Assembly: GCA_013792005.1 (NCBI GenBank)
Contig: VMSU01000028.1
Span: forward strand, 104-64,103
Direction: 5' to 3'
DNA: 64,000 nucleotides
Origin: Desulfobulbaceae bacterium
GTDB taxonomy: Bacteria; Desulfobacterota; Desulfobulbia; Desulfobulbales; VMSU01
Below the pieces are notes generated by a model that had not been told where the DNA came from, did not search any database, and was given only the letters and a program-made list of their open reading frames with translations. Of the stretch, positions 21,769-41,115 are shown one piece after another. The position numbers and the translations under genes were made by a program. Each line of letters begins with the position of its first letter. The first letter of the stretch is position 1.

Positions 21769-22103
21769 CTGTAGAGTGATGGATGACCCGGAATGGCCTG
21801 ATGATGTATCTCCTGGGAATTTTTGATGTTGTCCTCCGCCCGGAGATATTTCCCCTCTGATAGGTAGGTTGCCGCAGCGACACTAGCGCGTTTTCTTGTC
21901 GTCCGGTATTCCAGAAATGCCGGTCTCGATCACTTGTGCCCCTTTTGGGTCCCCTGGCATAGCGGGATCAGTAAAACCCCATAAAACCCTTACAACCGCG
22001 TATAGTCACCACTTTATTTTCTTCTTGACCGGAAACGACAACCTGGTATGTTAGAAAAAAATTGAATACTAATTTGCCTGGAAAGGATAGAGCAGGGCAG
22101 AGA

Positions 22104-22445
22104 ATGCACAACAGTACAGTGGCGTCGCTCGCTAAGATTATGAAATCGATTGGTCATCCGATCCGGTTGAAGATCCTCTGTCTCCTGGTCGATGGCGGTC
22201 AGACGGTTGGTGAGATCCATGATCAGTTGACCACCTCGTTTGCCAATGTCTCCCAGCACCTTCAGCGGCTGCACCATCAAGGACTAGTGGTCACCGATAA
22301 GCAGGCAAATTTTGTCCGTTACTCTATCGCCTCACCCAAGGTCACAGAGATGATCGGTACTTTGCGACGCCTCTATTGTCGTTCTTTAATAGACAACGAA
22401 ACAGTTAAATCTCAAAAATCCAACCCAATGAGGAATAAGTCATGA
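22104..22445 (+). CDS. ArsR/SmtB-family transcriptional regulator
   Basis: 'IGHPIRLKILCLLVDGGQTVGEIHDQL..NVSQHLQRLHHQGLV' winged-HTH. ATG at 22104 preferred to the upstream TTG. Confidence 0.8.
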   Translation: MHNSTVASLAKIMKSIGHPIRLKILCLLVDGGQTVGEIHDQLTTSFANVSQHLQRLHHQGLVVTDKQANFVRYSIASPKVTEMIGTLRRLYCRSLIDNETVKSQKSNPMRNKS

Positions 22446-22657
22446 TTGTCACCGATTGGATTCACACTATTGCAGGAACCTTCATTCTCCTCAGTCTGGC
22501 CTTAGGCGTTCAGGCCAGTCCTCTCTTCCATAGCACCTATTGGTTATGGGTCACAGCCTTTGTCGGCGCTAATCTCTTTCAGTTCGGGCTGAGCAAGTTC
22601 TGTCCCATGGCCCTTATCCTTAAGGCCTTGGGAGTGCCGGAGAAACGGACGAAATAA
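22442..22657 (+). CDS. DUF2892 (YgaP C-terminal-like) small membrane protein
   Basis: 71 aa, two helices, 'ANLFQFGLSKFCPMALILKALG'. ATGA overlap with the ArsR gene. Confidence 0.7.
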   Translation: MIVTDWIHTIAGTFILLSLALGVQASPLFHSTYWLWVTAFVGANLFQFGLSKFCPMALILKALGVPEKRTK

Positions 22658-22818
22658 GTTGCGTTCACCCTGCTCCTCAAGCAGAGCCGAAAGGTACAGG
22701 ATGAGCAATTTTGACTCCTTAGGGACTGTTTATGCCAGCCTTTTTCCGACCATATCCAGAGATCGATCAATGGTCTCCTGGGTATGGTCGATCAAATTTT
22801 TATCCATGATTTTCACTG

Positions 22819-24561
22819 TTAGAGTTCTTTTCCCATTCCCATCTGAATGTAGCCGCATGGGCAGGCCTGAGAACAAATATGACACCCGACACATTGGTTG
22901 TAGTTGGTATACATCACTTCACCCGTTGGATTTTGCGGGAATGCTAAGATTGCCGATTGAGGACAGAATATCAAACATTGTCGGCACTCAAAACAGAGTC
23001 CGCAACTCATGCATCGTATGGATTCAGCCTGAAACTGTTCTTCGGTTATACCTAATTCTGCCTCCGACTCAAGCCCACTTGAACACCGCTGACCAACTGG
23101 TAACCAGTTACATTCGTTGCGTTTGAGTTCGGGATAATATTCCAAGCGCAGTGTATCAGGGGTTGCGATTTGTCTATCCGCGAAAAATCGGAACCCCTTA
23201 CCTTTGAATTTGGCATCAATCCGCTCAGCAGCCATTCTGCCATGGCCAATGGCTGTGGTCACCAGTTCCAGGCTGATGACGTCACCACCAGCGTACACCC
23301 CTGCGCCGACAGACCAGTCTTCATCAGGCATAAGCCAACCATTCTTGACAGGATCAAGCTGAATGCCACTCCAATCTGGACGTTGGCTGATGGCGTAGAT
23401 GACAGCTGTGCATGGCACTTCGAACTCAGACTTTGCCACTGGAATGACCATCCGCCGTCCACTGTTATCCAGTTCATCAAGCTTCATCCTTTGACACTTG
23501 ACGGCAACACCTTTGCCGTTCTCAGATCGAATTCCGAGAGGAGCGACCAGATACCGGATATCAATTTCTTCTATCAACGCAGCATCGATTTCCTTGTCAA
23601 GGGTGGGCATTTCAGCACGTGTTCTCCGGTACAGTAATGTCACTTGAGCTTCTAGTCGTCGTGCAACACGTGCGGCAGTAATGGCGGTATTCCCACCGCC
23701 AATGATCACTACTCTGTCGCCTATATCAATGGTCTTGCCAGAGTTGACCTGATTCAAGAACGCTACCCCGCTCAAGACATTGGGGGCGTTGTCCCAATTG
23801 CCTTCCAGCTCAACCCCCTTATGGGCTCCGATGCCGACAAAAATAGCGTCGTAATTTGCCCTAAGCCTTTCCCACTCAATATCTTTGCCAATGGTGGTGT
23901 TACAGACAATCTCAACACCCATTCTGGTAATGGCGTCAATTTCTGCGTCCAAAATGGCAGGCGGCAGTCGAAAGGCGGGGATTCCATAGCGAAGCATGCC
24001 GCCAGGCTGGGCAAAGGCTTCAAACACCGTTACCGGATAACCGCGTCGGGCCAGCTGAAAGGCGCAACTAAGTCCAGCCGGCCCGGCCCCGATTACCGCT
24101 ATCTTTTTATCCATGACCTCAGGACTTAGTTTTTTATGCTGCAAGCCATGGTTAATGCCGAAGTCGCCAAGCCACCGCTCAAAGGCGGCGATATTGACTG
24201 CGCCATCGTTTTTTTGGGTGCGATTGCATTGGCTTTCACAAGGATATGGACAAACCCGGCCGCAGGAAGCCGGAAATGGCGTGGTTTTACTGGCCTCGTG
24301 CCATGCTAATTCATATGATTCCCGCCAACTGCGATTTTTGAGCTGTGATTGTTGGACAATGGTCAGCCAGGATCGAATGTCATTGCCAGCAGGACAGCTA
24401 GCAGTACAGGGTGGAATTTTCCGCACATAGATTGGGCATTTGTGGCTATGGTCGCCAAAGGCAACAACTTTTTCTGTCCCGTGTTCTTCTGCAAATTCGG
24501 GATAGTGCCAATTGAGGGCGGAATCAAGAATAGGGTTGGAGTCAATAGGTTTGTTTGCCAT
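22819..24561 (-). CDS. GltD/NfnB-like NAD(P)H:acceptor oxidoreductase with C-terminal 2x[4Fe-4S] ferredoxin domain (DsrL-like)
   Basis: N-terminal Cys clusters 'CTASCPAGNDI' and 'SCGRVCPYPCESQC'. FAD and NAD Rossmann motifs 'IAVIGAGPAGLSCA' and 'VVIIGGGNTAITAA'. C-terminal 'CMSCGLCFECRQCLIFCP' and 'CVGCHICSQACPCG'. Starts 14 nt after the dsrB-like stop. Confidence 0.65.
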   Translation of the reverse strand: MANKPIDSNPILDSALNWHYPEFAEEHGTEKVVAFGDHSHKCPIYVRKIPPCTASCPAGNDIRSWLTIVQQSQLKNRSWRESYELAWHEASKTTPFPASCGRVCPYPCESQCNRTQKNDGAVNIAAFERWLGDFGINHGLQHKKLSPEVMDKKIAVIGAGPAGLSCAFQLARRGYPVTVFEAFAQPGGMLRYGIPAFRLPPAILDAEIDAITRMGVEIVCNTTIGKDIEWERLRANYDAIFVGIGAHKGVELEGNWDNAPNVLSGVAFLNQVNSGKTIDIGDRVVIIGGGNTAITAARVARRLEAQVTLLYRRTRAEMPTLDKEIDAALIEEIDIRYLVAPLGIRSENGKGVAVKCQRMKLDELDNSGRRMVIPVAKSEFEVPCTAVIYAISQRPDWSGIQLDPVKNGWLMPDEDWSVGAGVYAGGDVISLELVTTAIGHGRMAAERIDAKFKGKGFRFFADRQIATPDTLRLEYYPELKRNECNWLPVGQRCSSGLESEAELGITEEQFQAESIRCMSCGLCFECRQCLIFCPQSAILAFPQNPTGEVMYTNYNQCVGCHICSQACPCGYIQMGMGKEL

Positions 24562-24575
24562 CGGTGTGTCCGTCC

Positions 24576-25652
24576 TTAAAACCTGACGTGCGCTGATTGG
24601 TTAAAGGTGGTTCTGGCGTGTCGGTACGAATCAATCATGTCTTTTTCAAAGATCAGGCCAGTGGTGGCAAAGAAGTGCTTCCAGCCTACCCGGTCGATCC
24701 ATTCTCCCAATCGCTCCCAAGGCCTCCCTTCCTGTTTATAGACCTCAATGATTTTACTGACCACGGCATTGACCTCTGGCCAGCGAGGTGGATTGTTGGG
24801 AAGATTCTGAGCGACCAGGCAGCCCACGGCCGGCTTCGATCGGGCATTAGAGTTCTTGCCACCAACCCAGACCCCGAATTTTGAATGCTCGGGATGGTTG
24901 ATCTCCATGACCGGGCAGGCACCGAAACAAGCCCCGCAGTACATGCATTTTTTATGGTCAACCCTCAGCGATGGCTTGCCATTGACTACCGTTGGTCGAA
25001 TTGCGGCCACTGGGCAGCGGGCAACCACCTTGGGCAATTCACAGATGTTCGCCATCACCTCATGGTTAATGCGAGGGGGACGGGTATGTTTGACCACAAT
25101 GGCAATATCTGCCTGACCGCCACAGTTGATGGCACAGCAGGAGGTAGAAATTCTCACCTTGCTTGGCAGTTGACAGTTTGTGAACTCTTCATACAGGTTA
25201 TCCATGATGGATTTGACCACACCAGAGGCATCTGTGGCAGGGATGTCGCAGTGAAGCCAGCCTTGGGTATGGGACACATTAGAGACACAGGGGCCGATTC
25301 CTCCCACCGGCAAACCGATCGACTCCAAGGATTTGATTAGCAACTCCACCTTTTCCTCGTCCGCAGTCATCAGTTCCACATTGTTGCGCACAGTAAAACG
25401 TAGGTAGCCATCGGCGTAGGTGTCGGCGATATCACAAATTCGTCGAATCAAATCCACCGAATCCTGGCGGGGTGTGCCAGCCCTTACCGTAAACAGGACA
25501 TCTCCATTTTCGGCAACATGTTTAAGCACACCTGGTCGGAGCAGTTGATGATATTTCCATTTACCGTAATTTTTTATGACTACCGGATGGAGTGCACCCT
25601 GGTAGTCATAAGGTCCTGATTCAACCGTTTTCCAGGTTCGTTCGCTACTCAT
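24576..25652 (-). CDS. dsrB: Dissimilatory-type sulfite reductase beta subunit (divergent DsrB family)
   Basis: 'VIKNYGKWKYHQLLRPGVLKHV' DsrB N-terminus. Ferredoxin insert 'CPVAAIR..CMYCGACFGACP'. 'STSCCAINCGG'. ATG at 25652 with a GGAG RBS, 22 nt after the dsrA stop. Confidence 0.75.
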   Translation of the reverse strand: MSSERTWKTVESGPYDYQGALHPVVIKNYGKWKYHQLLRPGVLKHVAENGDVLFTVRAGTPRQDSVDLIRRICDIADTYADGYLRFTVRNNVELMTADEEKVELLIKSLESIGLPVGGIGPCVSNVSHTQGWLHCDIPATDASGVVKSIMDNLYEEFTNCQLPSKVRISTSCCAINCGGQADIAIVVKHTRPPRINHEVMANICELPKVVARCPVAAIRPTVVNGKPSLRVDHKKCMYCGACFGACPVMEINHPEHSKFGVWVGGKNSNARSKPAVGCLVAQNLPNNPPRWPEVNAVVSKIIEVYKQEGRPWERLGEWIDRVGWKHFFATTGLIFEKDMIDSYRHARTTFNQSAHVRF

Positions 25653-25674
25653 GGTGTGCTCCATTTCGCAAAAA

Positions 25675-26913
25675 TTAGTACGCGGATTTATAATATGGGT
25701 TGCTCCGAGGACTCGATACCATATCGATGGACGCCTCCAGGCCAACTCCATCCAGGAACTGTTTTAAACTGACTCGTTCAATAGTCTCGCCAATTCTCTC
25801 GTGGTCGAAGCCGTTATCATTCCACCACTCAATAATGGTTTCGCATAAGCAGATAAACGTCGCGATATCCTCATCGCTTTCCATTTTGAAGAAGGGAACG
25901 ATCATGGTTCCGCCCATGGCGCCAACCTTCAAGGTATTTTTTCCGCCAAGCAGGATGGCCAGACCTCTTTCCCTGCCTGGTGACAAGGCCTCCGTCATTA
26001 CGTTGATGCAGTGCATGCAGCGGACGCAGTTTGCATTGTCGATGGCCATTGTTCCATCGGCCAGGGAAAGGGCGCGTGTTGGACAACGACTGATCACGTT
26101 GTTTACCAGGAACTCGAGACCATTCTTTTGAATCCAAGCCTGCATGGCTTCCGTATCTACGAGGATGGCATCCCGCCACATCCCGATTACAGCCAGATCG
26201 GAGCGAAAGATTGAATTGCTGCAGTCATTGGGGCAGCCAGAAAATTTAAACTTGAACTTATAGTTATACTGGGGACGGTGGATATCCCCGGCAAAGTGTT
26301 TCATGACCTTGTAGTGCAGTAGCAAGGTGTCATAACAGGCATGTTCGCAGCGGGCAGGTCCCACACAGGAAATGCTTGTTCGCATGGCGGGACCTGCTCC
26401 CCCCAGATCCCAACCCGCTTGATTGATCTCATCAAAGCACTCTTGCACCTTGGCTTCCTCAATGCCCTGCAGCATGATATCACCTGTCTGGCCATGCAGG
26501 GCAATCAAGCCGGAACCATGTTTTTCCCAAGTGTCGCAAAGATCGCGTAACATCGTGGTGTTGTAGTGTAAGCCCGGTGCGGGCTGAACCCGGAGTGTAT
26601 GAAATTCATGGGCCTCCGGGAATTTGTCCGCAATCTTGGAGCGACGGCTGATTACTCCGCTCCCGTAGCCATATACCGTGACCAGACCGCCTTCCCAATA
26701 ACCGGTCTTAGTCAGGTAGGAATACTCCAATTGATCGAGAACTCCCCTGAGCATGGGTTTTTTGGTTCGTTCCGCCAATTCTTTAAGCCCACTGACAAAG
26801 CTGGGCCATGGGCCTTCTTCCAATGCATCCAGCAGGGGAGTTGGATGTAGGAAATTCCCTTCTATAACAGATGATTCGATGGGAAAGTCAGTATCTTTTT
26901 TTTCCTGATCCAT
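25675..26913 (-). CDS. dsrA: Dissimilatory-type sulfite reductase alpha subunit (divergent DsrA family)
   Basis: 'TPLLDALEEGPWPSFVSGLKE', 'VYGYGSGVISR', sirohaem/[4Fe-4S] motifs 'CVGPARCEHAC' and 'KFKFSGCPNDC', ferredoxin insert 'CPTRAL..CVRCMHCINVM'. Confidence 0.8.
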   Translation of the reverse strand: MDQEKKDTDFPIESSVIEGNFLHPTPLLDALEEGPWPSFVSGLKELAERTKKPMLRGVLDQLEYSYLTKTGYWEGGLVTVYGYGSGVISRRSKIADKFPEAHEFHTLRVQPAPGLHYNTTMLRDLCDTWEKHGSGLIALHGQTGDIMLQGIEEAKVQECFDEINQAGWDLGGAGPAMRTSISCVGPARCEHACYDTLLLHYKVMKHFAGDIHRPQYNYKFKFKFSGCPNDCSNSIFRSDLAVIGMWRDAILVDTEAMQAWIQKNGLEFLVNNVISRCPTRALSLADGTMAIDNANCVRCMHCINVMTEALSPGRERGLAILLGGKNTLKVGAMGGTMIVPFFKMESDEDIATFICLCETIIEWWNDNGFDHERIGETIERVSLKQFLDGVGLEASIDMVSSPRSNPYYKSAY

Positions 26914-26937
26914 GGCGTGACTCCTGTGTTGTTTCGA

Positions 26938-28575
26938 TCAAGGATGCGAATTAGCGCCATCCTGCTGAAGTTTTAGCATCATCAGCAATTTATGGGCAGC
27001 GTCTCTGATCTCAATGAGATCGCTTTTGGCCGGCGCGTTTCCATACCAGTGGGCATAATCCGGATTACTGTGACCAACCCCAAGGATCATGAGTTCAAGG
27101 CATTTCTCTAAATCAGACAGGTATTGGAGTAATCGTTTCATGAGCACTTCTGCCACTTGTTGGTTATGCCCAAAGTCTGCCAGTAGACGTAAAGAGCCGC
27201 TCGTATCCTGTTGAACAATCTTAGCGTTAATCAACTCTCCGACTACGCTGTCTGCATCCTTCTTCAAACTTTGGGCATGCTGCTTTATTGTCGACAGATC
27301 TTTAATGAATTGTGAGGTTTGAACCGTTGTGTGGCATGCGCCGCAGAGTTTTTCCCAATCAGCATTTGCCTTGTCGCCGGTCGGATGACAGGTGGCGCAG
27401 GCCGGTTTTTGCCGTTGATCGGGTAATACCCCGTGAAACGAGGATTCGTAGGTCACTTGATAGATAGGGCCGGGAACAGGGATAACTGAGGGAAGGGAGA
27501 TAAGCGAGAGCACGGCATTTTGGGCTGCCAACTCCTCAAGCATCTGGGCTTCGGCCTGTAACTCCTCCAGATGTTTTTGCAAGGGGATCAAGCCTTGGTA
27601 GGCAGCCATTTTAAAATCTTGATGATAGGCGCCTTGGCTCAGATGAATTTGCAAATACTTTTGCATTTCAAAGTAAATTTTCTCTGCTCGGGAGGTATCT
27701 TCATACAATTGGTGAGCGCCAAGAACAAGGGCCTTGCCATCTACCGGGTTAGGTTGCCGATCCTTGGGTGCGGGATAGAGCAGGTTGTTTTTGTTCAATT
27801 GCTCAATGATTATTCGACCGGATGCCAGCAATTGTTTTCCCTTTTGATCCAGCATGACAGCGCCATCCACCCATTTACGAGTGAACGGTTGGTCATGGCA
27901 CTTAACGCATTCCTTGTCAATATACTCACTGCTCAGCCGATCTAGATTCTTATTGGCGTTATGGGTGCCTGGCAGATGGCAACTGGCACAGGTAGAGGGT
28001 GTAAAGTGGTGCCCCGATTTTTGATATGCCTCCATCTGTGGATGATCAGGTCCCATGTGGCAGGTGTAGCAGGACTGTGGTCGTGCGGCCTCAGCCTTGG
28101 AGAAAGTATGTCTTGCATGGCAGAAATCACAGCGTCCGTCATTCTCTCCATAGCCTATTCGGTGGCAGGATTCGCAACCTTGTCTTTTAACCACGTCAGG
28201 CTGTTTTTGATAGCGGGCGTTCGCCTGCATGTTCTCCCATGATTTGCTATGATCGCTGGTCAGGAATTCCTCTGTTTCCTTTTGATGGCATTTCTGGCAG
28301 GCCGAACGGGCGGTCACCACGGACATCTTTTGGTGGTCAGCGCCATGGCAGTCGGTACAACCAACATCATTCTTACCATGAGCGCCTGACATATGTTCCT
28401 GATAAATCCTGGTGGTGGTCTTCTGATGACATTCCTCACAACTCATCTTTGAACTGATAATTTCTTCTATGGCCATCACCGGTTTTTCCTGAGCCAAACA
28501 GGAACCCTGGAGTGATAGAGTCAACCACCCCAACGCGGCTATAACGTGGCAAGCGATTTTTACCGTATAATTCAT
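26938..28575 (-). CDS. Periplasmic decahaem c-type cytochrome, hydroxylamine oxidoreductase (HAO) family-like
   Basis: Signal peptide. Ten CxxCH motifs counted by hand (CEECH, CTDCH, CQKCH, CESCH, CDFCH, CYTCH, CASCH, CVKCH, CATCH, CGACH). HAO-type signature 'CDFCHARHTFSKAEAARPQSCYTCHMGPDHPQMEAYQKSGH'. Confidence 0.7.
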   Translation of the reverse strand: MNYTVKIACHVIAALGWLTLSLQGSCLAQEKPVMAIEEIISSKMSCEECHQKTTTRIYQEHMSGAHGKNDVGCTDCHGADHQKMSVVTARSACQKCHQKETEEFLTSDHSKSWENMQANARYQKQPDVVKRQGCESCHRIGYGENDGRCDFCHARHTFSKAEAARPQSCYTCHMGPDHPQMEAYQKSGHHFTPSTCASCHLPGTHNANKNLDRLSSEYIDKECVKCHDQPFTRKWVDGAVMLDQKGKQLLASGRIIIEQLNKNNLLYPAPKDRQPNPVDGKALVLGAHQLYEDTSRAEKIYFEMQKYLQIHLSQGAYHQDFKMAAYQGLIPLQKHLEELQAEAQMLEELAAQNAVLSLISLPSVIPVPGPIYQVTYESSFHGVLPDQRQKPACATCHPTGDKANADWEKLCGACHTTVQTSQFIKDLSTIKQHAQSLKKDADSVVGELINAKIVQQDTSGSLRLLADFGHNQQVAEVLMKRLLQYLSDLEKCLELMILGVGHSNPDYAHWYGNAPAKSDLIEIRDAAHKLLMMLKLQQDGANSHP

Positions 28576-28610
28576 TTGCGGAGCCTCTTTGACAAGTTAG
28601 GAAAAATTAA

Positions 28611-29825
28611 CTACCGGACTCCGCTGCCTCCATATTCCTTACAACTTAAAGCGAATTCCTTACCGAAACGAATGCTATTGGTAACCGCCTCATCACTGGG
28701 GTTCCACTTCTCTCGAATGCCATCATTTACCAGTTGGAAGCCACTTGCTGTGAGTTTTTCGGATATGATCTTCACAGCCTCTCCACTCCATCCATAGCAT
28801 CCAAAGGCAGCTGCCTTTTTATTCTTGAATTTCAGCCCCTTGATTTCTTCGAGAAGGGCGGCGACAGAGGAGAGAATGCCATTATTGATGGTAGGAGAGC
28901 CGATCAGAATCCCTTTTGATTTGAAAATTTCTGTGATTAGATCATTCTTGTCTGAACGCGCTATGTTGAACAATTTTACGGCAACTGTAGGATCTGCGGT
29001 GGTGATTCCTTGGGTGATGGCCTCGGCCATCCGTCGTGTCCCGTCCCACATGCTATCATAGGCTACGGTAATTTGATCTTCGGCATAGTTGTTTGCCCAT
29101 TCCACGTATTTGGTGACAATCTGCAACGGCTCTTTTCGCCACATAACCCCATGACTTGGACAGATCATCTCCACCGGCACATTCAAGGCAAGAACCTCCT
29201 TAATTTTTTTGTCGACCAGGGCGCTGAATGGGGTCAAAATGTTGGCATAATACTTTATCGCCTCCTGAAACAATTCCCCCTGATCGACAAGATCGTTGTA
29301 CATCAACTCGGAAGCGATATGCTGGCCAAAGGCATCATTACTGAACAGAATGTTATCTTCAGTAAGATAGGACATCATGCTATCCGGCCAGTGCAACATC
29401 TTTGCTTCAATAAAGATTAGTTGTTTTGATCCCAAGTTGAGTGAATCGCCAGTCTTGATAATCTGAAAATTCCAATCCTGATGATAATGACCTTTGATGA
29501 TGTTTACCCCGTTTGCCGTGCAGTAGATCGGGGTGTCGGGGATATGACGCATTAATTCCGGCAGGGCGCCGCTATGGTCAGACTCGGCATGATTAATAAC
29601 AATGAAATCAATCGCTCCAAGGGGGATCTCTTTTTGCAGTTTGGTGACGAACTCAGCAGAAAATTTCCCCCACACCGTATCTATCAACGCTGTCTTTTCA
29701 TCCCTGACCAGATAGGAATTATAACTTGAACCGCGATGCGTCGAATATTCTTCACCATGAAATTTTCGTAATTCCCAGTCAACCTTCCCGATCCAGGAAA
29801 TGTTTTTATTTATAGTAAAGCCCAT
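28611..29825 (-). CDS. fprA: FprA-family flavodiiron protein (A-type flavoprotein; O2/NO reductase)
   Basis: Metallo-beta-lactamase-like diiron motif 'INHAESDHSG', C-terminal flavodoxin 'LIGSPTINNGIL', AAGGAG RBS. Confidence 0.9.
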   Translation of the reverse strand: MGFTINKNISWIGKVDWELRKFHGEEYSTHRGSSYNSYLVRDEKTALIDTVWGKFSAEFVTKLQKEIPLGAIDFIVINHAESDHSGALPELMRHIPDTPIYCTANGVNIIKGHYHQDWNFQIIKTGDSLNLGSKQLIFIEAKMLHWPDSMMSYLTEDNILFSNDAFGQHIASELMYNDLVDQGELFQEAIKYYANILTPFSALVDKKIKEVLALNVPVEMICPSHGVMWRKEPLQIVTKYVEWANNYAEDQITVAYDSMWDGTRRMAEAITQGITTADPTVAVKLFNIARSDKNDLITEIFKSKGILIGSPTINNGILSSVAALLEEIKGLKFKNKKAAAFGCYGWSGEAVKIISEKLTASGFQLVNDGIREKWNPSDEAVTNSIRFGKEFALSCKEYGGSGVR

Positions 29826-29874
29826 GGCAATCTCCTTGTGGTGATTATGTTGTGTTTATTAGTAATTTCACAGA

Positions 29875-30273
29875 TCAATCTGAGTCGGTGTCGAGTACAT
29901 GACGAACCATCTTAGCCATCCCGTGACTTTTTGCGAGACCATCAATACTCTCACTGGAATAGCCTGAAATGAAAATTATTTTGATCCGCTGTGAACGATC
30001 CTTGACGAGTTCAGCGAGCATAGTTCCTCGTCGTGCCGGCATAACCACATCCGTATTGTGTTATGGACAGCACAAGGTATCGATGGAGTTTGGTGTTCCA
30101 TCCACATTGGTATGATGCCAGAGTGTGTGGCTTTCCTGTCCGAGGAGTTCATCCATGGAATAACCGAGCATCCGTTGGGCTGCTGGATTGGCAAAACTGT
30201 GGCATCCTTTCTTGTCTATACCTAATAAGAGATCTGTGCTTGTCCTGACTTTTCGTAAACGTTCACCGGGCAC
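29875..30273 (-). pseudogene. Decayed hybrid sensor kinase remnant (PAS fragment fused in frame to the C-terminal half of a receiver domain)
   Basis: One minus-strand frame reads 'DLLLGIDKKGCHSFANPAAQRMLGYSMDELLGQESHTLWHHTNVDGTPNSIDTLCCP'. A TAA follows at 30061-30063. Then comes 'DVVMPARRGTMLAELVKDRSQRIKIIFISGYSSESI', which runs straight into a MITE end. No HisKA/HATPase lies between them. Confidence 0.6.
29911..29945 (+). repeat. MITE-like repeat family, copy E (solo terminal fragment)
   Basis: 'cttagccatcccgtgactttttgcgagaccatcaa' matches the right ends of copies A and B and the left end of D. The preceding sequence is unrelated to the family. Confidence 0.65.
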
Positions 30274-30444
30274 CCATCTGCTTTGTCAGCAGCCTGCTTA
30301 TGTGCAACAAGCACACTTCGCAGACCGCTTTATTGACCGACGAAGCGGGTCAATATAAATCGCGCATCCGGGGCACCCGGTAAACGTTTACAGTCCGTTG
30401 AAATCCGCACGTTCAACGCTTCTGGTGAACGATTACGACTTTTC
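30247..30444. repeat. Divergent MITE-like element, copy F
   Basis: Inverted ends 'gacttttcgtaaacgttcacc'(30247-30267) and 'ggtgaacgattacgacttttc'(30424-30444). The 53-nt core 30274-30326 is about 80% identical by hand count to 41143-41196 and includes the palindrome TGTGCAACAAGCACA (30301-30315). Size is similar to the canonical copies. Confidence 0.4.
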
Positions 30445-32026
30445 AACAAAGTACGGAGAGAGTGACCTGAAAAATCACTCCACCCAGGGGGAGATTGGTT
30501 GCCGTAACTCCACCGCCATGCTGCTCGGCTAACTCCCTGACAATGGCAAGCCCCAGCCCGGAGCCCTCGGTTTGCCGAGTCCCGGATGGTCGATGAAAGG
30601 GGTCGAAGATCCTTTCGCCGTCCTCGCAGCGTAACCCAATCCCGTTATCGGCTACCGTAAGGAGATGCCGGTCGCCATCGCTATTGTATCCGAAAGAAAT
30701 TTCGCTTAACCTATCGCCACCATATTTCAAAGAGTTGTCGACCAGATTACGCAAAATACGCAGCAGGGCCAGGCGGTCAGCCATGAGCGTTGGACAATAT
30801 TCCGGCTCGATCCAGGAGATGGCGCGTTCCTTAAGTTGGCAGTCAAACTCGGTCCGGAGGTCTCGAAGAATACTCTTAAGATTCACCGCCTCGACAAGAA
30901 GAGAGGCATTGCCGGCGGAGATATAGTCGTTGATCTTTCCCGTCAGTTCGGCAAGCTGATGTGCTGCCCTGACAATCTGTTCGCAGCAAGCCTTACCCCG
31001 GTTGTCAAGGAGGTGGCGGTATCGTTTGTCAAGAAGTCGGCATAGCCCTTCAATGGCAATCGCCGGACTTTTGAGGTCATGGGAAATCGAATAGGCAAAG
31101 AGCTTAATCTTTTCCGAACTTCTGGACAGGGCATCCTCTGCCCTTTGGCGTTCAAGGATTTCCGTCTGGAGTTCGTAGTTCATCCCGCGAAGATCTCTGG
31201 TTCGTTCTTTGACCATCTCCTCCAGGTGATTCCGGTATTGGGTCAATGCCTGCTCATTCCGTTTTCGTTCAGTACAGTCCTCGACCATCTCGATTGCCGC
31301 AATTACTTCTCCTGCCTCGCCATGAATCGGTGAGGATATGATTCGATAGTTCCGGATCACTTCCCCATCGGGGGTTTCGGTTACCGCTTCGTGAACCAGC
31401 CCGTCGCGTAACGTTTTAGAGGTTGGGCAATAGCTACAGATTCCTTGACGAGGCGGATTATTGAATGAGTGGTAGCAGACCGGCTTTAGAGAGATATTGA
31501 TCAAGGGAAACCATTGCCGCATCTGACGATTCAGAGAGAGAATGCGCATCTCCGGACTGATGACGGCGACCCCGATACCGATATTGTCCACCACGCTTTG
31601 ATATTTGTCTTCATTTTCCTTCAGCCGCTTACCAACATTGAGGATCTCGGTGATATTGCGCATCAGCACGATAACTCCAGACTCCCGACATTGCCCATTA
31701 TTGACCGGAATAATGGTGGTCTCCACCGCCAACTCGGCCCCAAACCCATCAACAAAAGAAAGGACTTCTTCTTGTCTTATGGCTTCCACGCAATGGAGAT
31801 ACAATGACGACTGATGTTTTCCAGCAGTACTGGTTAGCTGCTGGGTGAACACCTCAGAACAGTGGTGTCCCAAGACATCTTGATCAGAGACACCAAGCAT
31901 TGCTAGCAGAGAAGGATTTATTTCCCGTAGGATCAAATTATGATCAAGCCATGCCATGCCAACTGGCAAACTGGAGGCAATCCCTGGGATAAGGTCAGGA
32001 TTTGTGCATAGCAGATTGGCGAACAT
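30443..32026 (-). CDS. PAS-domain sensor histidine kinase (cytoplasmic)
   Basis: H-box 'YSISHDLKSPAIAIEG'. ATPase 'VADNGIGL..GSGLGLAIVRELAEQHGG'. PAS region carrying Cys motif 'CSYCPTSK'. Confidence 0.9.
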   Translation of the reverse strand: MFANLLCTNPDLIPGIASSLPVGMAWLDHNLILREINPSLLAMLGVSDQDVLGHHCSEVFTQQLTSTAGKHQSSLYLHCVEAIRQEEVLSFVDGFGAELAVETTIIPVNNGQCRESGVIVLMRNITEILNVGKRLKENEDKYQSVVDNIGIGVAVISPEMRILSLNRQMRQWFPLINISLKPVCYHSFNNPPRQGICSYCPTSKTLRDGLVHEAVTETPDGEVIRNYRIISSPIHGEAGEVIAAIEMVEDCTERKRNEQALTQYRNHLEEMVKERTRDLRGMNYELQTEILERQRAEDALSRSSEKIKLFAYSISHDLKSPAIAIEGLCRLLDKRYRHLLDNRGKACCEQIVRAAHQLAELTGKINDYISAGNASLLVEAVNLKSILRDLRTEFDCQLKERAISWIEPEYCPTLMADRLALLRILRNLVDNSLKYGGDRLSEISFGYNSDGDRHLLTVADNGIGLRCEDGERIFDPFHRPSGTRQTEGSGLGLAIVRELAEQHGGGVTATNLPLGGVIFQVTLSVLC

Positions 32027-32111
32027 CTCTCTCTCCTGTGTTTAAGTCTTCGACACAATCAACCATATCTTTCACTCTTGACTCTCTTCAACGTTGAATA
32101 TGAACGAATCA

Positions 32112-32789
32112 TTACAAATGAACATCCTCCTGAGGCTCGGAGTAAAATTCAGGGTACAATTTCTTGGCACACTCAGGGCAGATACCATGACTGAATTCTG
32201 CCTCGGAATGATCCCTTATGTAAGCTTCAATTTGATTCCAGGCTCCTTTGTCATCCCTTATTTTTTTGCATGAGGCGCAGATCGGTAAAAAACCTTGCAG
32301 TATTCTGATCTGGGCTAACGCCTCCTCCCGTTCACGGACTGCCTGAGCCTTTTTTTCTTCTATGAATTTTCTCTGCAACGATAAAACGGTCGTAACCCAA
32401 ATAGCAAATAGGGCCAGCGCTCGGTTCGTTAACACCTTCCATATCTCACCGCCTGGCGGTGAGAAAAATAATCCAAGAATTGTTAATATGGAACAGAGGA
32501 CTGCTACCATGACAGTGAAGTGGCGCTTTTTGTGCCAAAGAGAGAGCAGAACGACCGAGATATAAGGAACCCCGGCAGCCACCCCTAAAGGAAGGGCCAG
32601 ATCAACACTAAAAAGAACCAACGTCAGTATGGCATAGCCAACGACGAGCAACCGATTCCTCCTTGCCGTCTCTTCCGCAAGTTGCTGTTTTGTCTGCTCA
32701 GATTGGTTGCAAACTCCTATTGCTGTGGGCGTCATTTTGGACCCATACATTTCATCGTATATGTTCAATATTTCCCTCGTGGTTGTCAT
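32112..32789 (-). CDS. Membrane protein with C-terminal Cys4 'CxxCKKIRD...GICPxC' module
   Basis: Four hydrophobic helices, a coiled segment, then 'ICASCKKIRDDKGAWNQIEAYIRDHSEAEFSHGICPECAKKLY'. Start uncertain: TTG 32807, ATG 32789 or ATG 32735. Confidence 0.6.
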   Translation of the reverse strand: MTTTREILNIYDEMYGSKMTPTAIGVCNQSEQTKQQLAEETARRNRLLVVGYAILTLVLFSVDLALPLGVAAGVPYISVVLLSLWHKKRHFTVMVAVLCSILTILGLFFSPPGGEIWKVLTNRALALFAIWVTTVLSLQRKFIEEKKAQAVREREEALAQIRILQGFLPICASCKKIRDDKGAWNQIEAYIRDHSEAEFSHGICPECAKKLYPEFYSEPQEDVHL

Positions 32790-32991
32790 TATTTCAAGAG
32801 ACAGCAAGTCATTTACTGCACGATGTTCGCATCAGGGGCTCAATAATAGGTTTCTGGTTTCGATAGCTGGAGCGCCTGCAAAAAGCGTATGTTATTTTTT
32901 AGAGGCCCCCTGTTGGTAGCGGTCGTTCTCGACTCTTTTCGTTTCGGATCCCTAATCAAAGCAAGGCGCTGCAGAGATCGCCAGGGATTGA

Positions 32992-34074
32992 CTAGGTGTT
33001 GCTGTTGTATATCGCCGCGAACTCATGATGAAGGTCCCGAAAGGCCTCATGGATCCTTGGGTCGAAGTGATCGGGCATGGTGCGACCGTCACCCTTGATG
33101 AGTATTTTGCAAGTCGTCTCGTGATCAAAGGCCGGTTTGTATGGTCGGGAGCTACGTAAGGCGTCGTATTGGTCGGCAATGTTCATCAGTCGGGCGGCCT
33201 GGGGAATCTCCTCGCCCCGCAGGCCATGCGGATAGCCATGACCGTCCCAGCGTTCATGGTGGCTCAGGGCGATCTGTTCACCCATTATGATGTACTGTGA
33301 TGTCGAGCCGGTTAGGATGCTCCCGCCAATGAGCGTATGGTTCTTCATCAGAGCGAACTCCTCGTTGTTGAGCTTGCCGCGTTTAAGCAGGATATCGGAA
33401 GGGATGCCGATCTTGCCGATGTCATGCATGGGGGCGGCATAGGAGATAACTTCCACCTCCTCTGCAGACCAGCCTAGTGCCGTAGCCAGAAGGGCGCAGT
33501 AGGTCCCCACCCGCTTGATGTGCGAGGCCGTTTCTTCGTCCTTGAATTCAGCGGCGATGGTGAGCCGTAATACCGTGTCATGATAACTTTCTTTCAGTTG
33601 TTCTCTTGATTCGTGCAATTGGGCAGTGCGGGCCAAGACCTCACTTTCCAGCAACTCGTTGTGTTGTTTTAAAAAATCACCGTAATCCTTAACCTGCAGC
33701 AGATTTTTGGTCCGGAGCATCAACTCGCTCTTGTCAATGGGCTTGGTCAGGAAATCGCTGGCGCCTGACTCCAGACCCTTCAGCCTGGAGTCCCGATCGG
33801 TCAAGGCTGTGACCATGACTACCGGGATCTCGCTGGTGGCCATATCGGCCTTGAGTTCCCGGCAGACAGAGTAGCCATTCATTTCCGGCATCATGATATC
33901 GAGAAAGATCAGGTCCGGGACATATTCTCTTACCATTGCCAGCGCCTCGGCGCCACTGGCAGCGACTGCAAAATCATAGCCGTAATGGCGCAGCATAACA
34001 CCCATCACCTTCCGGTTTTTTTCTTCATCATCAACGATGAGAATTTTATGTGGTGTGCTCCTGCTCCTTTCCAT
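32992..34074 (-). CDS. Response regulator with HD-GYP domain (c-di-GMP phosphodiesterase type)
   Basis: Receiver 'ILIVDDEEKNRKVM..DLIFLDIMMPEMNGY'. 'HDIGKIGIP' and 'HHERWDGHGYPHGL'. Confidence 0.9.
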   Translation of the reverse strand: MERSRSTPHKILIVDDEEKNRKVMGVMLRHYGYDFAVAASGAEALAMVREYVPDLIFLDIMMPEMNGYSVCRELKADMATSEIPVVMVTALTDRDSRLKGLESGASDFLTKPIDKSELMLRTKNLLQVKDYGDFLKQHNELLESEVLARTAQLHESREQLKESYHDTVLRLTIAAEFKDEETASHIKRVGTYCALLATALGWSAEEVEVISYAAPMHDIGKIGIPSDILLKRGKLNNEEFALMKNHTLIGGSILTGSTSQYIIMGEQIALSHHERWDGHGYPHGLRGEEIPQAARLMNIADQYDALRSSRPYKPAFDHETTCKILIKGDGRTMPDHFDPRIHEAFRDLHHEFAAIYNSNT

Positions 34075-34106
34075 TGCCGTCCTCCTTCTGCTCTATTGAG
34101 CGTGTC

Positions 34107-36176
34107 CTACTGATTACTCTTGGCCGTGACCGGAACAAACAAGCTGAAACGACTTCCTTCGCCCACGGTGCTGTCGACCTCAATCCGGCCGCCAAGCAAG
34201 TCCAGGAACCGTTTACAGAGAACTAGGCCTAGCCCAAGTCCCTGATACGATTTGCTGACTGAGGAGTCCCCCTGCTGAAAGGGCAAAAAAAGCCGCTCCT
34301 GCTGTTCTTTGCTGATGCCGATCCCGGTATCCCACACGGTGATCCGTATCATTTCCTCTTCTTTCCCGGCATTAATGCCGACAGTGCCGCCGCTTGCGGT
34401 GAACTTGACCGCGTTCTCCACCAGTCTCTCCATCACCTTGGTCAATATCCTTGCATCACTGTTAATCATGCCAACTGAGGTGTCCACCTGCATCTGTAAG
34501 ACGATATCGCGCTGCTTGGCCATTTCTCGGAAAAATTCCAGCCAAGAGTCAAGCAGGAGTGCAAGGTCAAAAAACTCGTGTTCAACCTCTGTCCTGGCCG
34601 CCTCAAGCAGCGAGAGATCAAGAATGTCGGTAATCAGCCCCAAGAGTCGGTGGCCGCTTTGCCGGATTTCTTCAAGATAGTCCTGCTGTTCGCGATTTAC
34701 CGGGCCGATCATGCCGTCCTGCATAATTTCGGCAAAGCCGATAATGGCGTTCAGCGGGGTTCGCACCTCATGGGACATGTTGGCCAGAAAGGTCGATTTT
34801 GCCTGGCTTGCCGCTTCCGCCGCATTTCTCGCCTGGCGCAGATCGTCCTCCAGCAACCGACGTTCGGTGGTATCGCGGCCTACCGCCTGAAATTCAATAA
34901 GCTTGCCGTGTTGGTCAAGAATGGCGCGGTCAATCCAATGCTGCCAGCGGATGCTGCCATCCGGTAAGACCACCCGGTGTTCGATGTCGGCGCTGGGCCG
35001 ATCCCGACCCAACGAACTAAGGTGCTCCTCTGTCTGCCTCCGGTCTCCCTCCTCCGGGAGCAGGGACATAAAGCTGTGGCCCACCAAGGCCTCTTTTGAT
35101 TGGCCGAAATAGCGGCAATAGGCCTCATTGACAAAGGTCAGAATCCAGTCGGGACGGAAGCGGCAGATCAGTTCGGTCTGATCTTCGACGATGGCGCGGT
35201 AGTTGGCCTCGCTCTCCCGCAACCGTTGCTCGCTGCGGCGGTGACCCAGGATCTCCTCTTGCAACCGAGCGTTGACCCGCAGAAGTTCAGCGGTACGTTC
35301 CGCAACCCGGGTCTCAAGTTTTTCCTTGGCCTGTCTCAACTCCTCCTCCACCTCATGCTGGGCGGTGAGGTCGCGGGCGTTTACCACCACCCCGGAGACC
35401 GCACCATCCGCTTCGACCACAGGGTAGTAGGCCACATCCATAAACAGCCGCCCGAGGCCGGCGAACTGAAACCACCCCTGATAGCGAACCTCCTCGCCCG
35501 TCAGACACCGATCCAGTTTATCCTTCACCAATAGCTCAAAGGTCTCCTGTCCGAGCATTTCCACAACGCTGCGCCCGACAATATCCTCGCGTCGATGCTG
35601 ATGGGCCAGCAGATAGGTATCATTGACCGCCCGATAGATATACTGGCGGTCCACCAGTGACATATGTTCGCGGGAGGTGGCGATGATTCGTTCATAGTCA
35701 CGTAGGACTTTTTCGGTCTGCTTTCTGGCGGTTATGTCCCGTTCGATGGCATAGATGTATTGCTTGCCGCTAACAAGAATCAGCTGGGCGGTCACCTCCA
35801 CGGTGATGAGCGTGCCGTCTTTGCGCGTGTGCACGGCCTCAAAAGTTTCCGCCTGTCCGCTCATCACTCGCCGAGTCCGGTCCGGGATATTGTGCCTGGT
35901 TTCAGGACTGTCGAGGATACTGATCGGTTGGCCGAGCAGTTCCGCCCGTCGGTAGCCATGGACCATGCAGGCCGCCTCGTTGAGATCGACAATAACCGGA
36001 ATGCCGTCGTCGCCTAATTCCAGGATCAGGATATAATCGGCGGTCTGCTCAAACAGGGCTCGGAATCGTTCCTCGGTCTGATGTAACTCACTATTTTCCT
36101 GCTGCAAAGCGGCGAGTTGTCCCTCCAATGTTTGGAGGCGGATTTTTAGCTCTGTATTGGTTGTCTGTTGACTCAC
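34107..36176 (-). CDS. Multi-PAS sensor histidine kinase
   Basis: GTG start. At least three PAS-like segments. H-box '[21 protein letters not shown]'. ATPase 'DTGIGI..GLGLGLVLCKRF'. Confidence 0.9.
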   Translation of the reverse strand: MSQQTTNTELKIRLQTLEGQLAALQQENSELHQTEERFRALFEQTADYILILELGDDGIPVIVDLNEAACMVHGYRRAELLGQPISILDSPETRHNIPDRTRRVMSGQAETFEAVHTRKDGTLITVEVTAQLILVSGKQYIYAIERDITARKQTEKVLRDYERIIATSREHMSLVDRQYIYRAVNDTYLLAHQHRREDIVGRSVVEMLGQETFELLVKDKLDRCLTGEEVRYQGWFQFAGLGRLFMDVAYYPVVEADGAVSGVVVNARDLTAQHEVEEELRQAKEKLETRVAERTAELLRVNARLQEEILGHRRSEQRLRESEANYRAIVEDQTELICRFRPDWILTFVNEAYCRYFGQSKEALVGHSFMSLLPEEGDRRQTEEHLSSLGRDRPSADIEHRVVLPDGSIRWQHWIDRAILDQHGKLIEFQAVGRDTTERRLLEDDLRQARNAAEAASQAKSTFLANMSHEVRTPLNAIIGFAEIMQDGMIGPVNREQQDYLEEIRQSGHRLLGLITDILDLSLLEAARTEVEHEFFDLALLLDSWLEFFREMAKQRDIVLQMQVDTSVGMINSDARILTKVMERLVENAVKFTASGGTVGINAGKEEEMIRITVWDTGIGISKEQQERLFLPFQQGDSSVSKSYQGLGLGLVLCKRFLDLLGGRIEVDSTVGEGSRFSLFVPVTAKSNQ

Positions 36177-36206
36177 CGCGTTCTCCTTGCCAAAGTTACG
36201 ACAGCT

Positions 36207-36575
36207 TCATGCTCCAGTGGGTTCATATAGCTGGATCATCTCGACAAAATAGTTTTTGTTGATCGGTTTTGAGATGTAATTATTAAATCCGGCCTTCATG
36301 AATCGCTCCTTGTCACCTTTCATGGCATACGAGGTGAGAGCGATCACCGGGATCGCCTTTGTCGCATCCTCCTGGCGTAAACGGAGCACGGCGGAGATCC
36401 CGTCCAGCCGGGGCATCTGAATATCCATGAGGATAAGGTCGGGAATTGTCTGCCGGGCTACGGCAATCCCGGCCTCGCCATCCTCGGCGGTCAGGCATTG
36501 ATGCCCCATGGCTTCAACAATCACCCGGAATAGCTTAAGATTATGCGGGTTGTCTTCAACGATGAGAATTTTCAT
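36207..36575 (-). CDS. Single-domain (CheY-like) response regulator
   Basis: '[42 protein letters not shown]'. ATGA overlap with the upstream kinase stop. Confidence 0.9.
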
Positions 36576-39500
36576 GCTGTACTCCCTCCCTGAATTATTT
36601 GGTCAGTTGTCAGCGCCGACTTGGCCTGCAACACTGACAGCAGACCCTCAAAGGTGTCGCCGTCATCCGGGAAAAAGGCGGCCTCCACCTCAAAGGAATG
36701 GCCAGTCCCATTCAGTATCTCTTTGAATCGGGCCAGGGACTTGGCTAGTATGTTCCGTTCCATCCCGATAACGGCCAGACTGATGACCTGGTGGTCGGCA
36801 TCCGCCATGAGAACATCGTGCCCCCTGGTTTTCTGCTGAATTGTCGCCGCAGCAGCAATAAAATTCTCCAGCGGCATGAGGCTGGCGGGTTGGAAACGAA
36901 AGAGGGCGAATTCAACCTGTTCACGCTTGCCTAGAGAGAGTAGCCGGTTGATGTGCCGGCTCCCGGATTGCCAGTCCAGGATTCTGGTGCCGGGCAATAC
37001 ATTCGCAGCATCCTGAGCCTTGTCCTTCTCCAGGGGCTCGGTCGCCGTCTCTGGTAGCATAAAGATAAAGCGGCTGCCGACCCCTAATTCGCTTTCGACC
37101 CAGATCCGGCCACCGTGCAGTTCTATGAACCTGCAGCAGAGATTGAGGCCAAGCCCGGTGCCTGGATACTTTCGGCTCAGTTCCGTATCTAGCTGCTGGA
37201 AGGGTTTGAAAAGCCTAGAAATATCCTCTGGGGCAATGCCGATACCGGTGTCCTGCACGGTAATTCGTACCCAATCGCCTTCCTTGATCGCCATCACCAG
37301 GATCTTGCCACCATCCAGGGTGAATTTCATGGCATTAGACAGTAGATTTACCAGCACCTGTTTGATTTTGCGCTCATCGGCGACTATTTCCCCGACATCT
37401 CCAGCCAAGTCCACGGTCAGGGTAATGCCATGCTTCATAGCCTTTTCCTTGAAGAGGATCAGGCTATGTTCAACCAGATCGGTGAGGGCAAAAGTGGTGA
37501 GCTCAAGCTCCGCATGACCGGCTTCCACCTTGGAGAGATCAAGAATATCGTTGATCAGGCTGAGCAGATGGGTACTGCTGTCAATAACATCGCCCAGGTA
37601 TTCCCGTTGGATGTCGGTAGTTGGTCCGGCCATGTCATCACGGATGACCTCGGAAAAACCGATGATGGCATTGAGCGGGGTGCGCAGTTCATGGGACATG
37701 TTGGCCAAAAAATCGGATTTGGCCCGGTTGGCTGCCTCGGCCTGCTGTTTGGCCTCCTCAAGATTTGCGGTCCGTTCCGCTACACTCTTCTCCAGTCCCT
37801 CAATGAGCATGGCGTTTTCGATTGCCGTGGCCGTCTGATTGGTAAATATCTGGGCCAACTGGATGCGCTGCGGAGTAAAATGCCCGACCGTCGTGCTATA
37901 CAGCAGCAGGGTGCCGACGCATTTCTTCTTGGCACAGATCAACGGCAGCCCGAGCACCTCCTTGAACCCCTGACTTTGCATCTCCTCCGCCCAGAGATTG
38001 AGAAGAGGATCATCAAACCTCATCAGAACCGGCTGTTGCTCGCGCATTGAGCGGTCGGCCGGCCCCATCCCCAATGGCGACTCATCCCGCCTCACCCGGA
38101 TCGTCTTCAGGTAGTCACCGTCGCTGCCGGCCTGCGCCACTGGCCGGATGGTATTATCCTTGCCGGCCAAACCGATCCAGGCCAAGCGTACGGTAAAGAT
38201 ATCAATTGCTTGCTGGCAGATGGCCTTGGTCAGCTCGGCAAACACAGTAATCCCGAGGATGGAACTCGAACCCGAGGTCAGGGCCAGCACCTCATCGTTG
38301 AAGGCAGCCAGATCATTTTCGGCCTGTTTGCGAATGGTAATGTCGGTGGAAATGCCGCAGGTGGCATACTGAGCACCGGTTGCAGAGTAGAGGGGGAATT
38401 TGACCGAAATATAGGTGTGCAGTCCATCGCTCTGTAGCACCTCTTCTTCGAGCTCCATGGCACGGTTTGCCGCCAGCACCAGGCGATCGTTGGCCCGCAT
38501 GGCATCGGCCTGTTCTCTTGGAAAATACTCATGGTCGGAGGTGCCGACTACTTTCTCCCTCTCAATGGCAAAGAGTTCCTCCCAGCGTTTGTTGACCAGC
38601 AGGTATCTGCCATCAAGCCCCTTCATGTAGATGACGGCGCCCGAGTTGTTGATGATGTCTTGCAGTCTGGCTTCACTCTCCTTCAAGGCATTCTCCGCCT
38701 GTTTGCGGTCGGTGATATCCCGGGCGATGCCGAGCAGGGCAACGCACGCTCCCTGCTCATCCCGCACCGGCGCTGTCGTCAGGAAGGCCGGATATTCGGA
38801 GCCATCCTTTCTGGCCAGGTTCAGCTCGCCAACCCAGCCATCTGCCATGGTCCTGCTCAGTATCTCCTGTTCGAGCCCGGCTGGATTGTTGGCAGAAAGG
38901 TTTATGAAGGCATTCCTGCCGAGCATCTCCTTGGGCTGGTAGCCGAAATAGTTAATCACCATGGGATTGGCATGAATGATGGCGCCCTGGAGGTCGGTAA
39001 TCATAATAAGATCCCGGCTGCTGTCCAAGGCCTGGGCCAGCATGGTCACCTGCCGGTGGTTAAGGGCGTTCTGCAGGGCCACCGCTACAATATCGGCAAC
39101 GGAGCGTAATGACTCCTCCTCTCCGGCATTAAACACCTTGCCGGGTGGCAGGTAGAGGCAGAGAACCCCCACCAGCTTAGTGCCGACCATGAGCGGCAAT
39201 ACGCTATGGCCGTGCTCCGTCATGCCCTCATAGGTTGTGGTATGCCGGTAATCGGCAATAGTGGTTGCATAAATGGCCGCTTTCTTTGCCGCAGCCAAGC
39301 CGCAGAGACACTGGCCCACCGGCACAGTGCCGCAGCGTTCGAGCATATTAGGGCAATACTCGCGCGAGGCAACCAGGGTCAGGTGCTGTTTGTCCTCGTC
39401 AAACAGGAAGATCCCGCCTTTCTTGTCCAAGGTAAGCAGCTCCAGGCTCAGTATCTCGTCCAGGATATCATTCACCAGGAGATCAAAATTCAAGGTCCGA

Positions 39501-40327: not shown

Positions 40328-40337
40328 GGGTTATCCC

Positions 40338-40829: not shown

Positions 40830-40892
40830 TTTAAACGGGTTACCTCTACAACCTGCAGAAAATAACTCCACAATCACCCCATTTTTTCAGGG

Positions 40893-41051: not shown

Positions 41052-41115
41052 ATTTATTCTCCTTTGTTGTTGAGAAGATGTACGTTTGGAAAACCACAGG
41101 GTGCTCTATACCGAA

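Follow-up and report, generated by a model that had tools for sequence, protein, structure and literature searches.

The type of dsrAB genes, which encode dissimilatory sulfite reductase (Dsr), is widely used to sort environmental organisms into sulfate reducers and sulfur oxidisers. Genomes that carry both types break this sorting rule. Desulfopila sp. IMCC35006 and IMCC35008, Desulforhopalus sp. IMCC35007, and Desulfobulbaceae bacterium S5133MH15 hold two dsrAB copies, one oxidative (rdsrABL-2) and one reductive (dsrABD), with dsrC and dsrMKJOP elsewhere and dsrEFH absent, and this dual Dsr set was taken to suggest sulfur metabolism in both directions (PMC7596348). Klier et al. (2024) also noted such Desulfobacterota and set one case aside over worries about contamination. 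Here, we analysed a 64,000-nucleotide stretch (the window) of Desulfobulbaceae bacterium assembly GCA_013792005.1, contig VMSU01000028.1, in which rdsrA, rdsrB, and dsrL-2 form a module that adds a second Dsr set to the canonical reductive dsrABD of the same genome. The dual arrangement is already published, and the window is a further carrier of it. What looks new is the recurrent placement of rdsrABL by genes for nitrate and nitric oxide (NO) metabolism, which we did not find reported in a limited literature check; PMC7596348 makes no mention of nitrate or nitrite in this context.

Like the genomes described in PMC7596348, the window's host has the gene order rdsrA-rdsrB-dsrL-2, carries reductive dsrABD, dsrC, and dsrMKJOP elsewhere, and has no type-I dsrEFH; its DsrA is 77–82% identical to theirs (P0041, P0009) and falls in the same clade of our tree. 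Unlike them, it belongs to a different species and genus, and genes for a flavodiiron protein (FDP) and an HAO-like decahaem cytochrome are packed directly upstream of the module. The nearest relatives outside Desulfobulbales are the green sulfur bacteria, whose dsrNCABLEFHTMKJOP cluster (Chlorobium/Chlorobaculum) has the same A-B-L order and similar subunit lengths. In Chlorobi, however, dsrC, dsrN, dsrEFH, dsrT, and dsrMKJOP flank these genes in one cluster, whereas in the window's host they are scattered or missing, and a reductive Dsr set is present as well. Desulfurivibrio alkaliphilus and the cable bacteria (PMC5516251; PMC13293266) resemble the host in belonging to Desulfobulbales, in their sulfate-reduction gene set, in suspected nitrate-using sulfide oxidation, and possibly in a YeeE-TusA-DsrE-like cluster (YTD, or DsrEFH type II). 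These organisms run reductive DsrAB in reverse and have reductive-type DsrAB only, with no DsrL, whereas the window's host has a dedicated oxidative-type enzyme and DsrL-2 in addition.

Judged by its sequence, the window pair is an oxidative-type (reverse) rDsrAB, intact and ordinary, and not an odd paralogue. First, the products of rdsrA (412 residues; 25675-26913, minus strand) and rdsrB (358 residues; 24576-25652, minus strand) scored 496 and 476 bits with the NCBIfam models TIGR02064 and TIGR02066, against equivalog cut-offs of 393 and 341, respectively. The DsrAB fold is certain because both matched solved DsrAB structures at E = 1e-97 to 1e-111. Second, each subunit was 73% identical to Chlorobi rDsrA or rDsrB (range 68–74%), compared to 44% (DsrA) and 46% (DsrB) identity with the reductive copy in its own genome. 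The nearest DsrA homologues (77–90% identity) came from Desulfobulbaceae metagenome-assembled genomes (MAGs) and Desulfopila sp. IMCC35008, followed at ~72% by Chlorobium and Prosthecochloris. The DsrA relatives found in a genome scan, from Desulforhopalus and Desulfobulbaceae (79–82%), Magnetococcales (66%), and many proteobacterial sulfur oxidisers (51–60%; Sulfuricaulis, Thiomargarita, Sulfuritalea, Gallionella), were all nearer to the window DsrA than the reductive copy was. Third, we built a maximum-likelihood tree of concatenated DsrAB (38 taxa, 770 columns) on named genome loci, setting aside 50%-clustered representatives, which were mostly fragments. The window pair grouped with the other rDsrAB of Desulfobulbales in a monophyletic clade (support 100/99), which was sister to Chlorobi rDsrAB (100/99), with Magnetococcales and then proteobacterial rDsrAB branching outside. 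Support for the oxidative group as a whole was 100/100, and a branch of ~1.4 substitutions per site separated it from the reductive copies of Desulfobulbales.

Finally, features that an earlier reading of the DNA without database searches (the sequence-only reading) had taken for oddities proved to be signatures of the oxidative type. That reading had pointed to short subunits and altered conserved blocks, and the divergence is real: 412 and 358 residues compare to 426 and 376 in the genome's own reductive copy and to 437 and 381 in the D. vulgaris PDB chains, and window DsrA has 'YWE-GGLVTVYGYGSGVISR' where the reductive copy carries 'HWKHGGIVGVFGYGGGIVGR'. In the alignment, however, the loss of one residue in 'YW(K/E)-GG' and of 13 residues in the ferredoxin region of DsrA, like the short C-termini, is oxidative-type consensus, and Chlorobi DsrA, DsrB, and DsrL, at 408–418, 359–363, and 579–580 residues, match the window proteins in length. 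The DsrB motif 'SCCAINCGG' is present as described but is not unusual, for it keeps the CCX3C spacing, and 'HCDIPATD' and 'SCCxINCGG' (the latter with a two-residue deletion) are common to all oxidative-type DsrB. The suggestion that correct start sites might restore normal lengths does not hold in those terms, since the short lengths are genuine, yet normal for the oxidative type; the DsrB start 'MSSERTWK' is backed by homologues. The same reading had observed that no dsrD follows dsrB and that a DsrL-like gene begins 14 nt further on, which we confirmed (DsrB stop at 24576, DsrL-like start at 24561). An absent dsrD with an adjacent dsrL is the normal rdsrABL arrangement, and the sole dsrD of this genome follows the reductive dsrB.

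Using published criteria for cysteine motifs, sulfite-binding residues, and dissimilatory type (PMC10229431), we found that the cofactor and catalytic residues are intact, and the enzyme looks functional from its sequence. The motifs 'CVGPARCEHAC' and 'GCPNDC' in DsrA and the ferredoxin inserts in both subunits, as reported earlier, are all present. The sirohaem-[4Fe-4S] motif is C183-x5-C189 ... C227-x3-C231 in DsrA (CX5CXnCX3C) and C135 ... C172-C173-x3-C177 in DsrB (CXnCCX3C). Arg108, Arg178, Lys219, and Lys221 of DsrA align with the sulfite-binding Arg/Arg/Lys/Lys of A. fulgidus, and Thr143 aligns with alpha-Thr133, the dissimilatory-type threonine that stands in place of an assimilatory arginine. 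The ferredoxin insert cysteines are Cys277, Cys296, Cys299, and Cys302 in DsrA and Cys213, Cys236, Cys239, Cys242, and Cys246 in DsrB, where Pfam Fer4 also matched. Compared to a genome of the same genus (G013), ratios of nonsynonymous to synonymous change (dN/dS) were 0.045 for rdsrA, 0.054 for rdsrB, and 0.086 for dsrL, with dS near saturation, and the module is under strong purifying selection. At positions that are invariant in all other DsrAB, the clade has no radical substitutions and only two conservative ones (L to F and I to V), which weighs against a changed substrate. The sequence-only reading had proposed a functional but non-canonical enzyme, possibly a paralogue with a different physiological substrate. 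With residues kept and dN/dS ~0.05, its view of function stands, as does paralogy, canonical dsrAB lying elsewhere in the genome; the pair is a member of the standard oxidative-type rDsrAB lineage rather than non-canonical, and the different substrate found no support, those two conservative changes being the only clade-specific ones.

The gene downstream of dsrB (22819-24561, minus strand) encodes DsrL-2, an NAD(P)H:acceptor iron-sulfur flavoprotein as predicted from its domains and motifs. The 580-residue product contains Fer4_20, Pyr_redox_2, and a C-terminal Fer4_7 domain (residues 523–570), scored 580 bits with NF009410, and has NfnI/NfnB and GltD as its PDB relatives. Residues 311–313 form the YRR motif by which Löffler et al. 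(2020; PMC7596348) define DsrL-2, the type that prefers NADP(H); the motif is also present in DsrL of some Chlorobi. Its identity was 58% with a DsrL-2-like protein of Chlorobi that carries YRR, 40% with a DsrL-1B, and 33–37% with the proteobacterial DsrL-1A, which is 640–680 residues long and whose insertions it lacks.

The remaining Dsr genes are spread over other contigs of this assembly (4.0 Mb, 252 contigs, 97.6% complete; the window contig is C128). A search of the whole genome with the dsrA model revealed a better-scoring copy (584 bits) on contig C26, where dsrA (426 residues), dsrB (376 residues), and dsrD (86 residues) run up to the contig end. A tblastn search that used Chlorobi dsr genes and the host's dsrD as queries found no dsrC, dsrD, dsrN, or dsrMKJOP in the window, in agreement with the sequence-only reading; it placed all of them on other contigs, with a single dsrC retaining both C-terminal cysteines on C68, dsrMKJOP on C134, and dsrN on C138. 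An aprA above its cut-off lies on C40, and a true NapA cluster lies on C99. On C32 (6516-9300), genes for YeeE (PF04143) and TusA (PF01206) are followed by open reading frames (ORFs) of 105, 99, and ~57 residues in a layout that resembles the YTD, or DsrEFH type II, cluster of PMC13293266, and these small ORFs are probable candidates for type-II DsrEFH. A search of the genome with PF02635 returned two TusA-DsrE fusion-like ORFs only.

Among sampled Desulfobulbales, the rdsrABL module was present in 15 of 401 genomes and 9 of 83 genera, and in only 2 of the 16 genomes of the host's GTDB family. The module is patchy but monophyletic within the order. Its carriers include named isolates and assemblies of 2–3 contigs, and in near-complete relatives it sits on megabase contigs.

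In the window, rdsrA, rdsrB, and dsrL are the last three of five minus-strand genes that encode, in order, FDP, the decahaem cytochrome, DsrA, DsrB, and DsrL, separated by 35, 24, 22, and 14 nt. Predicted promoters and terminators in 21800-30600 were no more numerous than in shuffled sequence, so the case for an operon comes from the 14–35-nt gaps only. The first gene of the run (28611-29825, minus strand) encodes a NorV/FprA-like FDP without a rubredoxin domain (NF008887, 722 bits against a cut-off of 635). Between it and rdsrA, 24 nt upstream of the latter, lies a gene (26938-28575, minus strand) for a secreted HAO-family decahaem cytochrome c, which is not a Dsr component. Eight of its ten CxxCH motifs fall within the first 230 residues and two follow after ~170 haem-free residues, and its best PDB matches are the HAO-like proteins 6h5l, 6t5e, and 4n4j. 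In the same-genus genome G013, an 86%-identical FDP gene adjoins rdsrA directly upstream, with no decahaem cytochrome between them. Further upstream in the window (40338-40877, minus strand) is a gene for a RIC/YtfE-type di-iron protein of Fe-S repair, a nitrosative-stress function; it matched TIGR03652 at E = 5.5e-41, though with 141 bits, under the cut-off of 205, and is 59% identical to the RIC that locus L097 encodes upstream of rdsrABL.

Across Desulfobulbales loci, the A-B-L triad is invariant and its flanks recur in theme. Taking Nar, Nap, NorB, FDP, Hcp (hybrid-cluster protein), RIC, and the HAO-like gene as N-oxide markers, a set picked after the loci had been inspected, we found at least one marker within 10 kb of rdsrABL in 11 of 18 of these loci, which are related to one another, and in none of 20 regions of 20 kb drawn at random from the genomes of two carriers (Fisher p = 2.6e-5). 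Among the markers, narGHJI lies 0.15–3 kb downstream of dsrL on the same strand in loci L010, L011, L098, L125, L126, and L129, and on the same contig as rdsrABL in genome G372. FDP genes occur in the window, G013, L132, L097, and L010; Hcp in L124, L126, L132, and L098; RIC in the window, L124, and L097; the HAO-like cytochrome in the window and L132; NorB in L097; and Nap in L098. The NarG proteins beside dsrL belong to two lineages that are ~50% identical to each other, each above the narG cut-off, and that sit 3' of dsrL in two different rDsrAB subclades (L125:3886-9710, L011:12427-17797, L129:10308-16177), which suggests that the juxtaposition of narGHJI and dsrL arose more than once. NarG was present in 6 of 15 genomes with rDsrA and in 11 of 386 without it (p = 9e-6), a co-occurrence confounded by the concentration of both traits in one family (f17).

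We favour, with moderate confidence, an explanation in which rDsrAB and DsrL-2 would carry out DsrC-dependent sulfur oxidation, probably tied to nitrate or nitrite respiration. Sulfane sulfur would reach DsrC by way of TusA and the probable type-II DsrEFH, and rDsrAB would oxidise the DsrC-bound sulfur to sulfite. Electrons would leave via DsrL-2 to NADP+, via DsrMKJOP to the quinone pool, or by both routes, and AprAB and Sat would complete the oxidation to sulfate. With the reductive DsrABD serving sulfate reduction, the cell could run sulfur metabolism either way, and gene neighbourhoods suggest that the oxidative set would be in use during nitrate or nitrite respiration: the link to nitrate and nitrite is drawn because narGHJI lies 3' of the module in relatives and because FDP, the HAO-like cytochrome, and RIC are its neighbours here, with Nap elsewhere in the genome. 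A broader proposal, that rdsrABL-2 of Desulfobulbales is an accessory of nitrate respiration, a dedicated sulfur-oxidising electron-donor arm co-located with nitrate-reductase and NO-detoxification genes and, in some species, probably transcribed together with narGHJI, is tentative, and we hold it with somewhat less than even confidence.

Several points count against sulfur oxidation coupled to nitrate. The post hoc choice of markers, the shared ancestry of the loci, and the confounding of rDsrA with NarG have been stated with the counts they affect. A search of the whole genome of the window's host found no Nar, and no FNR/HcpR-type box was found upstream of the window's FDP gene or rdsrA. 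Type-I dsrEFH, which is essential in Allochromatium, was not found by tblastn with Chlorobi DsrE, DsrF, and DsrH, and the DsrE match of the 105-residue ORF on C32, which carries Cys53 and Cys63, is sub-threshold (E = 0.05–0.15). Catalytic direction, moreover, is not readable from sequence, and DsrL-2 is NADP(H)-specific, with NADPH tied to the reductive direction (Löffler et al., PMC7596348).

The last point leads to the strongest competing explanation, in which NADPH would deliver electrons through DsrL-2 to an rDsrAB that reduces sulfite together with DsrC, as an alternative or back-up sulfite reductase that would stand in for a main DsrABD inhibited by nitrite or NO, or would clear sulfite from the cytoplasm. 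Besides the YRR motif of DsrL-2 and the link that Löffler et al. draw between NADPH and sulfite reduction, this explanation can call on neighbours that are nitrosative-stress genes (FDP, RIC, Hcp, NorB) and not sulfur-oxidation genes, on the absence of type-I dsrEFH, and on a gene of the TauE sulfite-exporter family beside the module in one relative. We nevertheless consider it unlikely. rDsrAB and DsrL-2 also occur together in green sulfur bacteria that are bona fide sulfur oxidisers (PMC7596348), and the window enzyme shares 73% identity with the Chlorobi rDsrAB. A complete reductive DsrABD, including its activator DsrD, is already available to the cell, and the putative YTD-type sulfur relay of the genome could feed DsrC.

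Still less probable, in our view, is a role for the module in reducing nitrite (or hydroxylamine) in the cytoplasm, as a recruited NADPH-dependent sirohaem enzyme that would serve Nar-type nitrate respiration and take over the function of NirBD. DsrAB enzymes reduce nitrite in vitro, which counts for this idea. So do the position of narGHJI immediately 3' of dsrL in six or more relatives, the absence of NirB above its cut-off from the 10 rDsr-bearing genomes tested, the lack of NrfA (PF02335) in G324 and G282, the two sampled carriers with high-identity narGHJI right after dsrL, and an HPP-family gene, of a nitrite-transporter family, that follows dsrL in G031. However, NrfA is present in 8 of these 10 genomes, and the window's genome has no Nar. 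The absence of radical clade-specific substitutions at fixed DsrAB sites and the retention of the threonine that marks dissimilatory, DsrC-dependent enzymes, instead of the assimilatory arginine, speak against it as well. A more radical, less likely form of the proposal on nitrate respiration is that, in Nar-positive carriers without NrfA and NirB, the enzyme itself would be the missing cytoplasmic nitrite reductase.

That the module is an artefact, either a contig from a co-binned sulfur oxidiser or the decaying relic of a horizontal transfer, might be suspected from an assembly in 252 contigs and from the concern of Klier et al. (2024) over contamination in MAGs with such combinations, but this reading is effectively refuted, for C128 ranks highest of 105 large contigs in tetranucleotide similarity to the genome, the GC content of the module (0.507) is typical of the genome (0.503), the same module recurs in the Desulfobulbales carriers listed above, isolates and 2–3-contig assemblies among them, the clade is monophyletic, and the genes have intact frames and dN/dS ~0.05. 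We rejected misbinning and recent transfer on composition.

The window is therefore one more well-supported dual carrier and not a binning artefact, and the survey of neighbourhoods hints at when the oxidative set is used, namely in nitrate, nitrite, or NO metabolism. If sulfur oxidation by rDsrAB-DsrL-2 is tied to nitrate as we propose, then nominal sulfate reducers could switch to nitrate-dependent oxidation of sulfide or sulfur, and some of the Desulfobulbales that are classed as 'sulfate reducers' in marine sediments would double as nitrate-dependent sulfide oxidisers, coupling the sulfur and nitrogen cycles.

Other features of the surveyed loci are recorded here as observations. In 4 of 17 Desulfobulbales loci (L132, L133, L010, and L128), rdsrA is preceded at a distance of 170–400 nt by an FNR-like box; three of these boxes match TTGAC-N4-ATCAA perfectly, and four or more boxes arose in 3 of 300 shuffles; a search for a CRP-type TGTGA-N6-TCACA box found none. 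We do not claim FNR-type regulation of rdsrABL, the box evidence being too weak. Two marker-negative loci were noted post hoc to have a cytochrome c' gene upstream or a CBS and HPP-family pair downstream: in Desulforhopalus sp. IMCC35007, cytochrome c' is encoded directly upstream of rdsrA (L128:12334-12942), and in G031, genes for a CBS-domain protein and an HPP-family membrane protein follow directly downstream of dsrL (L127:6668-7918). A conserved ORF of ~125 residues that matches no Pfam or NCBIfam family lies 3' of dsrL in Chlorobi, Magnetococcales, and several Desulfobulbales (L012:14231-14602, L097:14194-14595, L124:12156-12533, L134:4885-5250); the window's genome contains no homologue of this ORF.

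Around the five-gene run of the window, the decahaem cytochrome has ~30 homologue clusters at 45–74% identity, none with a name and most of them from Desulfobulbaceae-like MAGs. Upstream of the FDP gene, a minus-strand block (30443-42088) encodes sensor kinases and response regulators, with partial matches to NO-signalling families of the NahK and NosR types, and then RIC and a DUF6448 protein (41456-42088, minus strand; PF20046, E = 7.6e-61). The set of FDP, DUF6448, and RIC is seen again upstream of rdsrABL in L097, beside the NorB gene. On the other side of the run, convergent with dsrL, the plus strand (22062-22657) encodes an ArsR/SmtB regulator and a 71-residue YgaP-like transmembrane protein (PF11127). 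The regulator weakly resembles the sulfite-sensing BigR (54 bits, cut-off 155), and this pair is a frequent companion of sulfur-stress genes.

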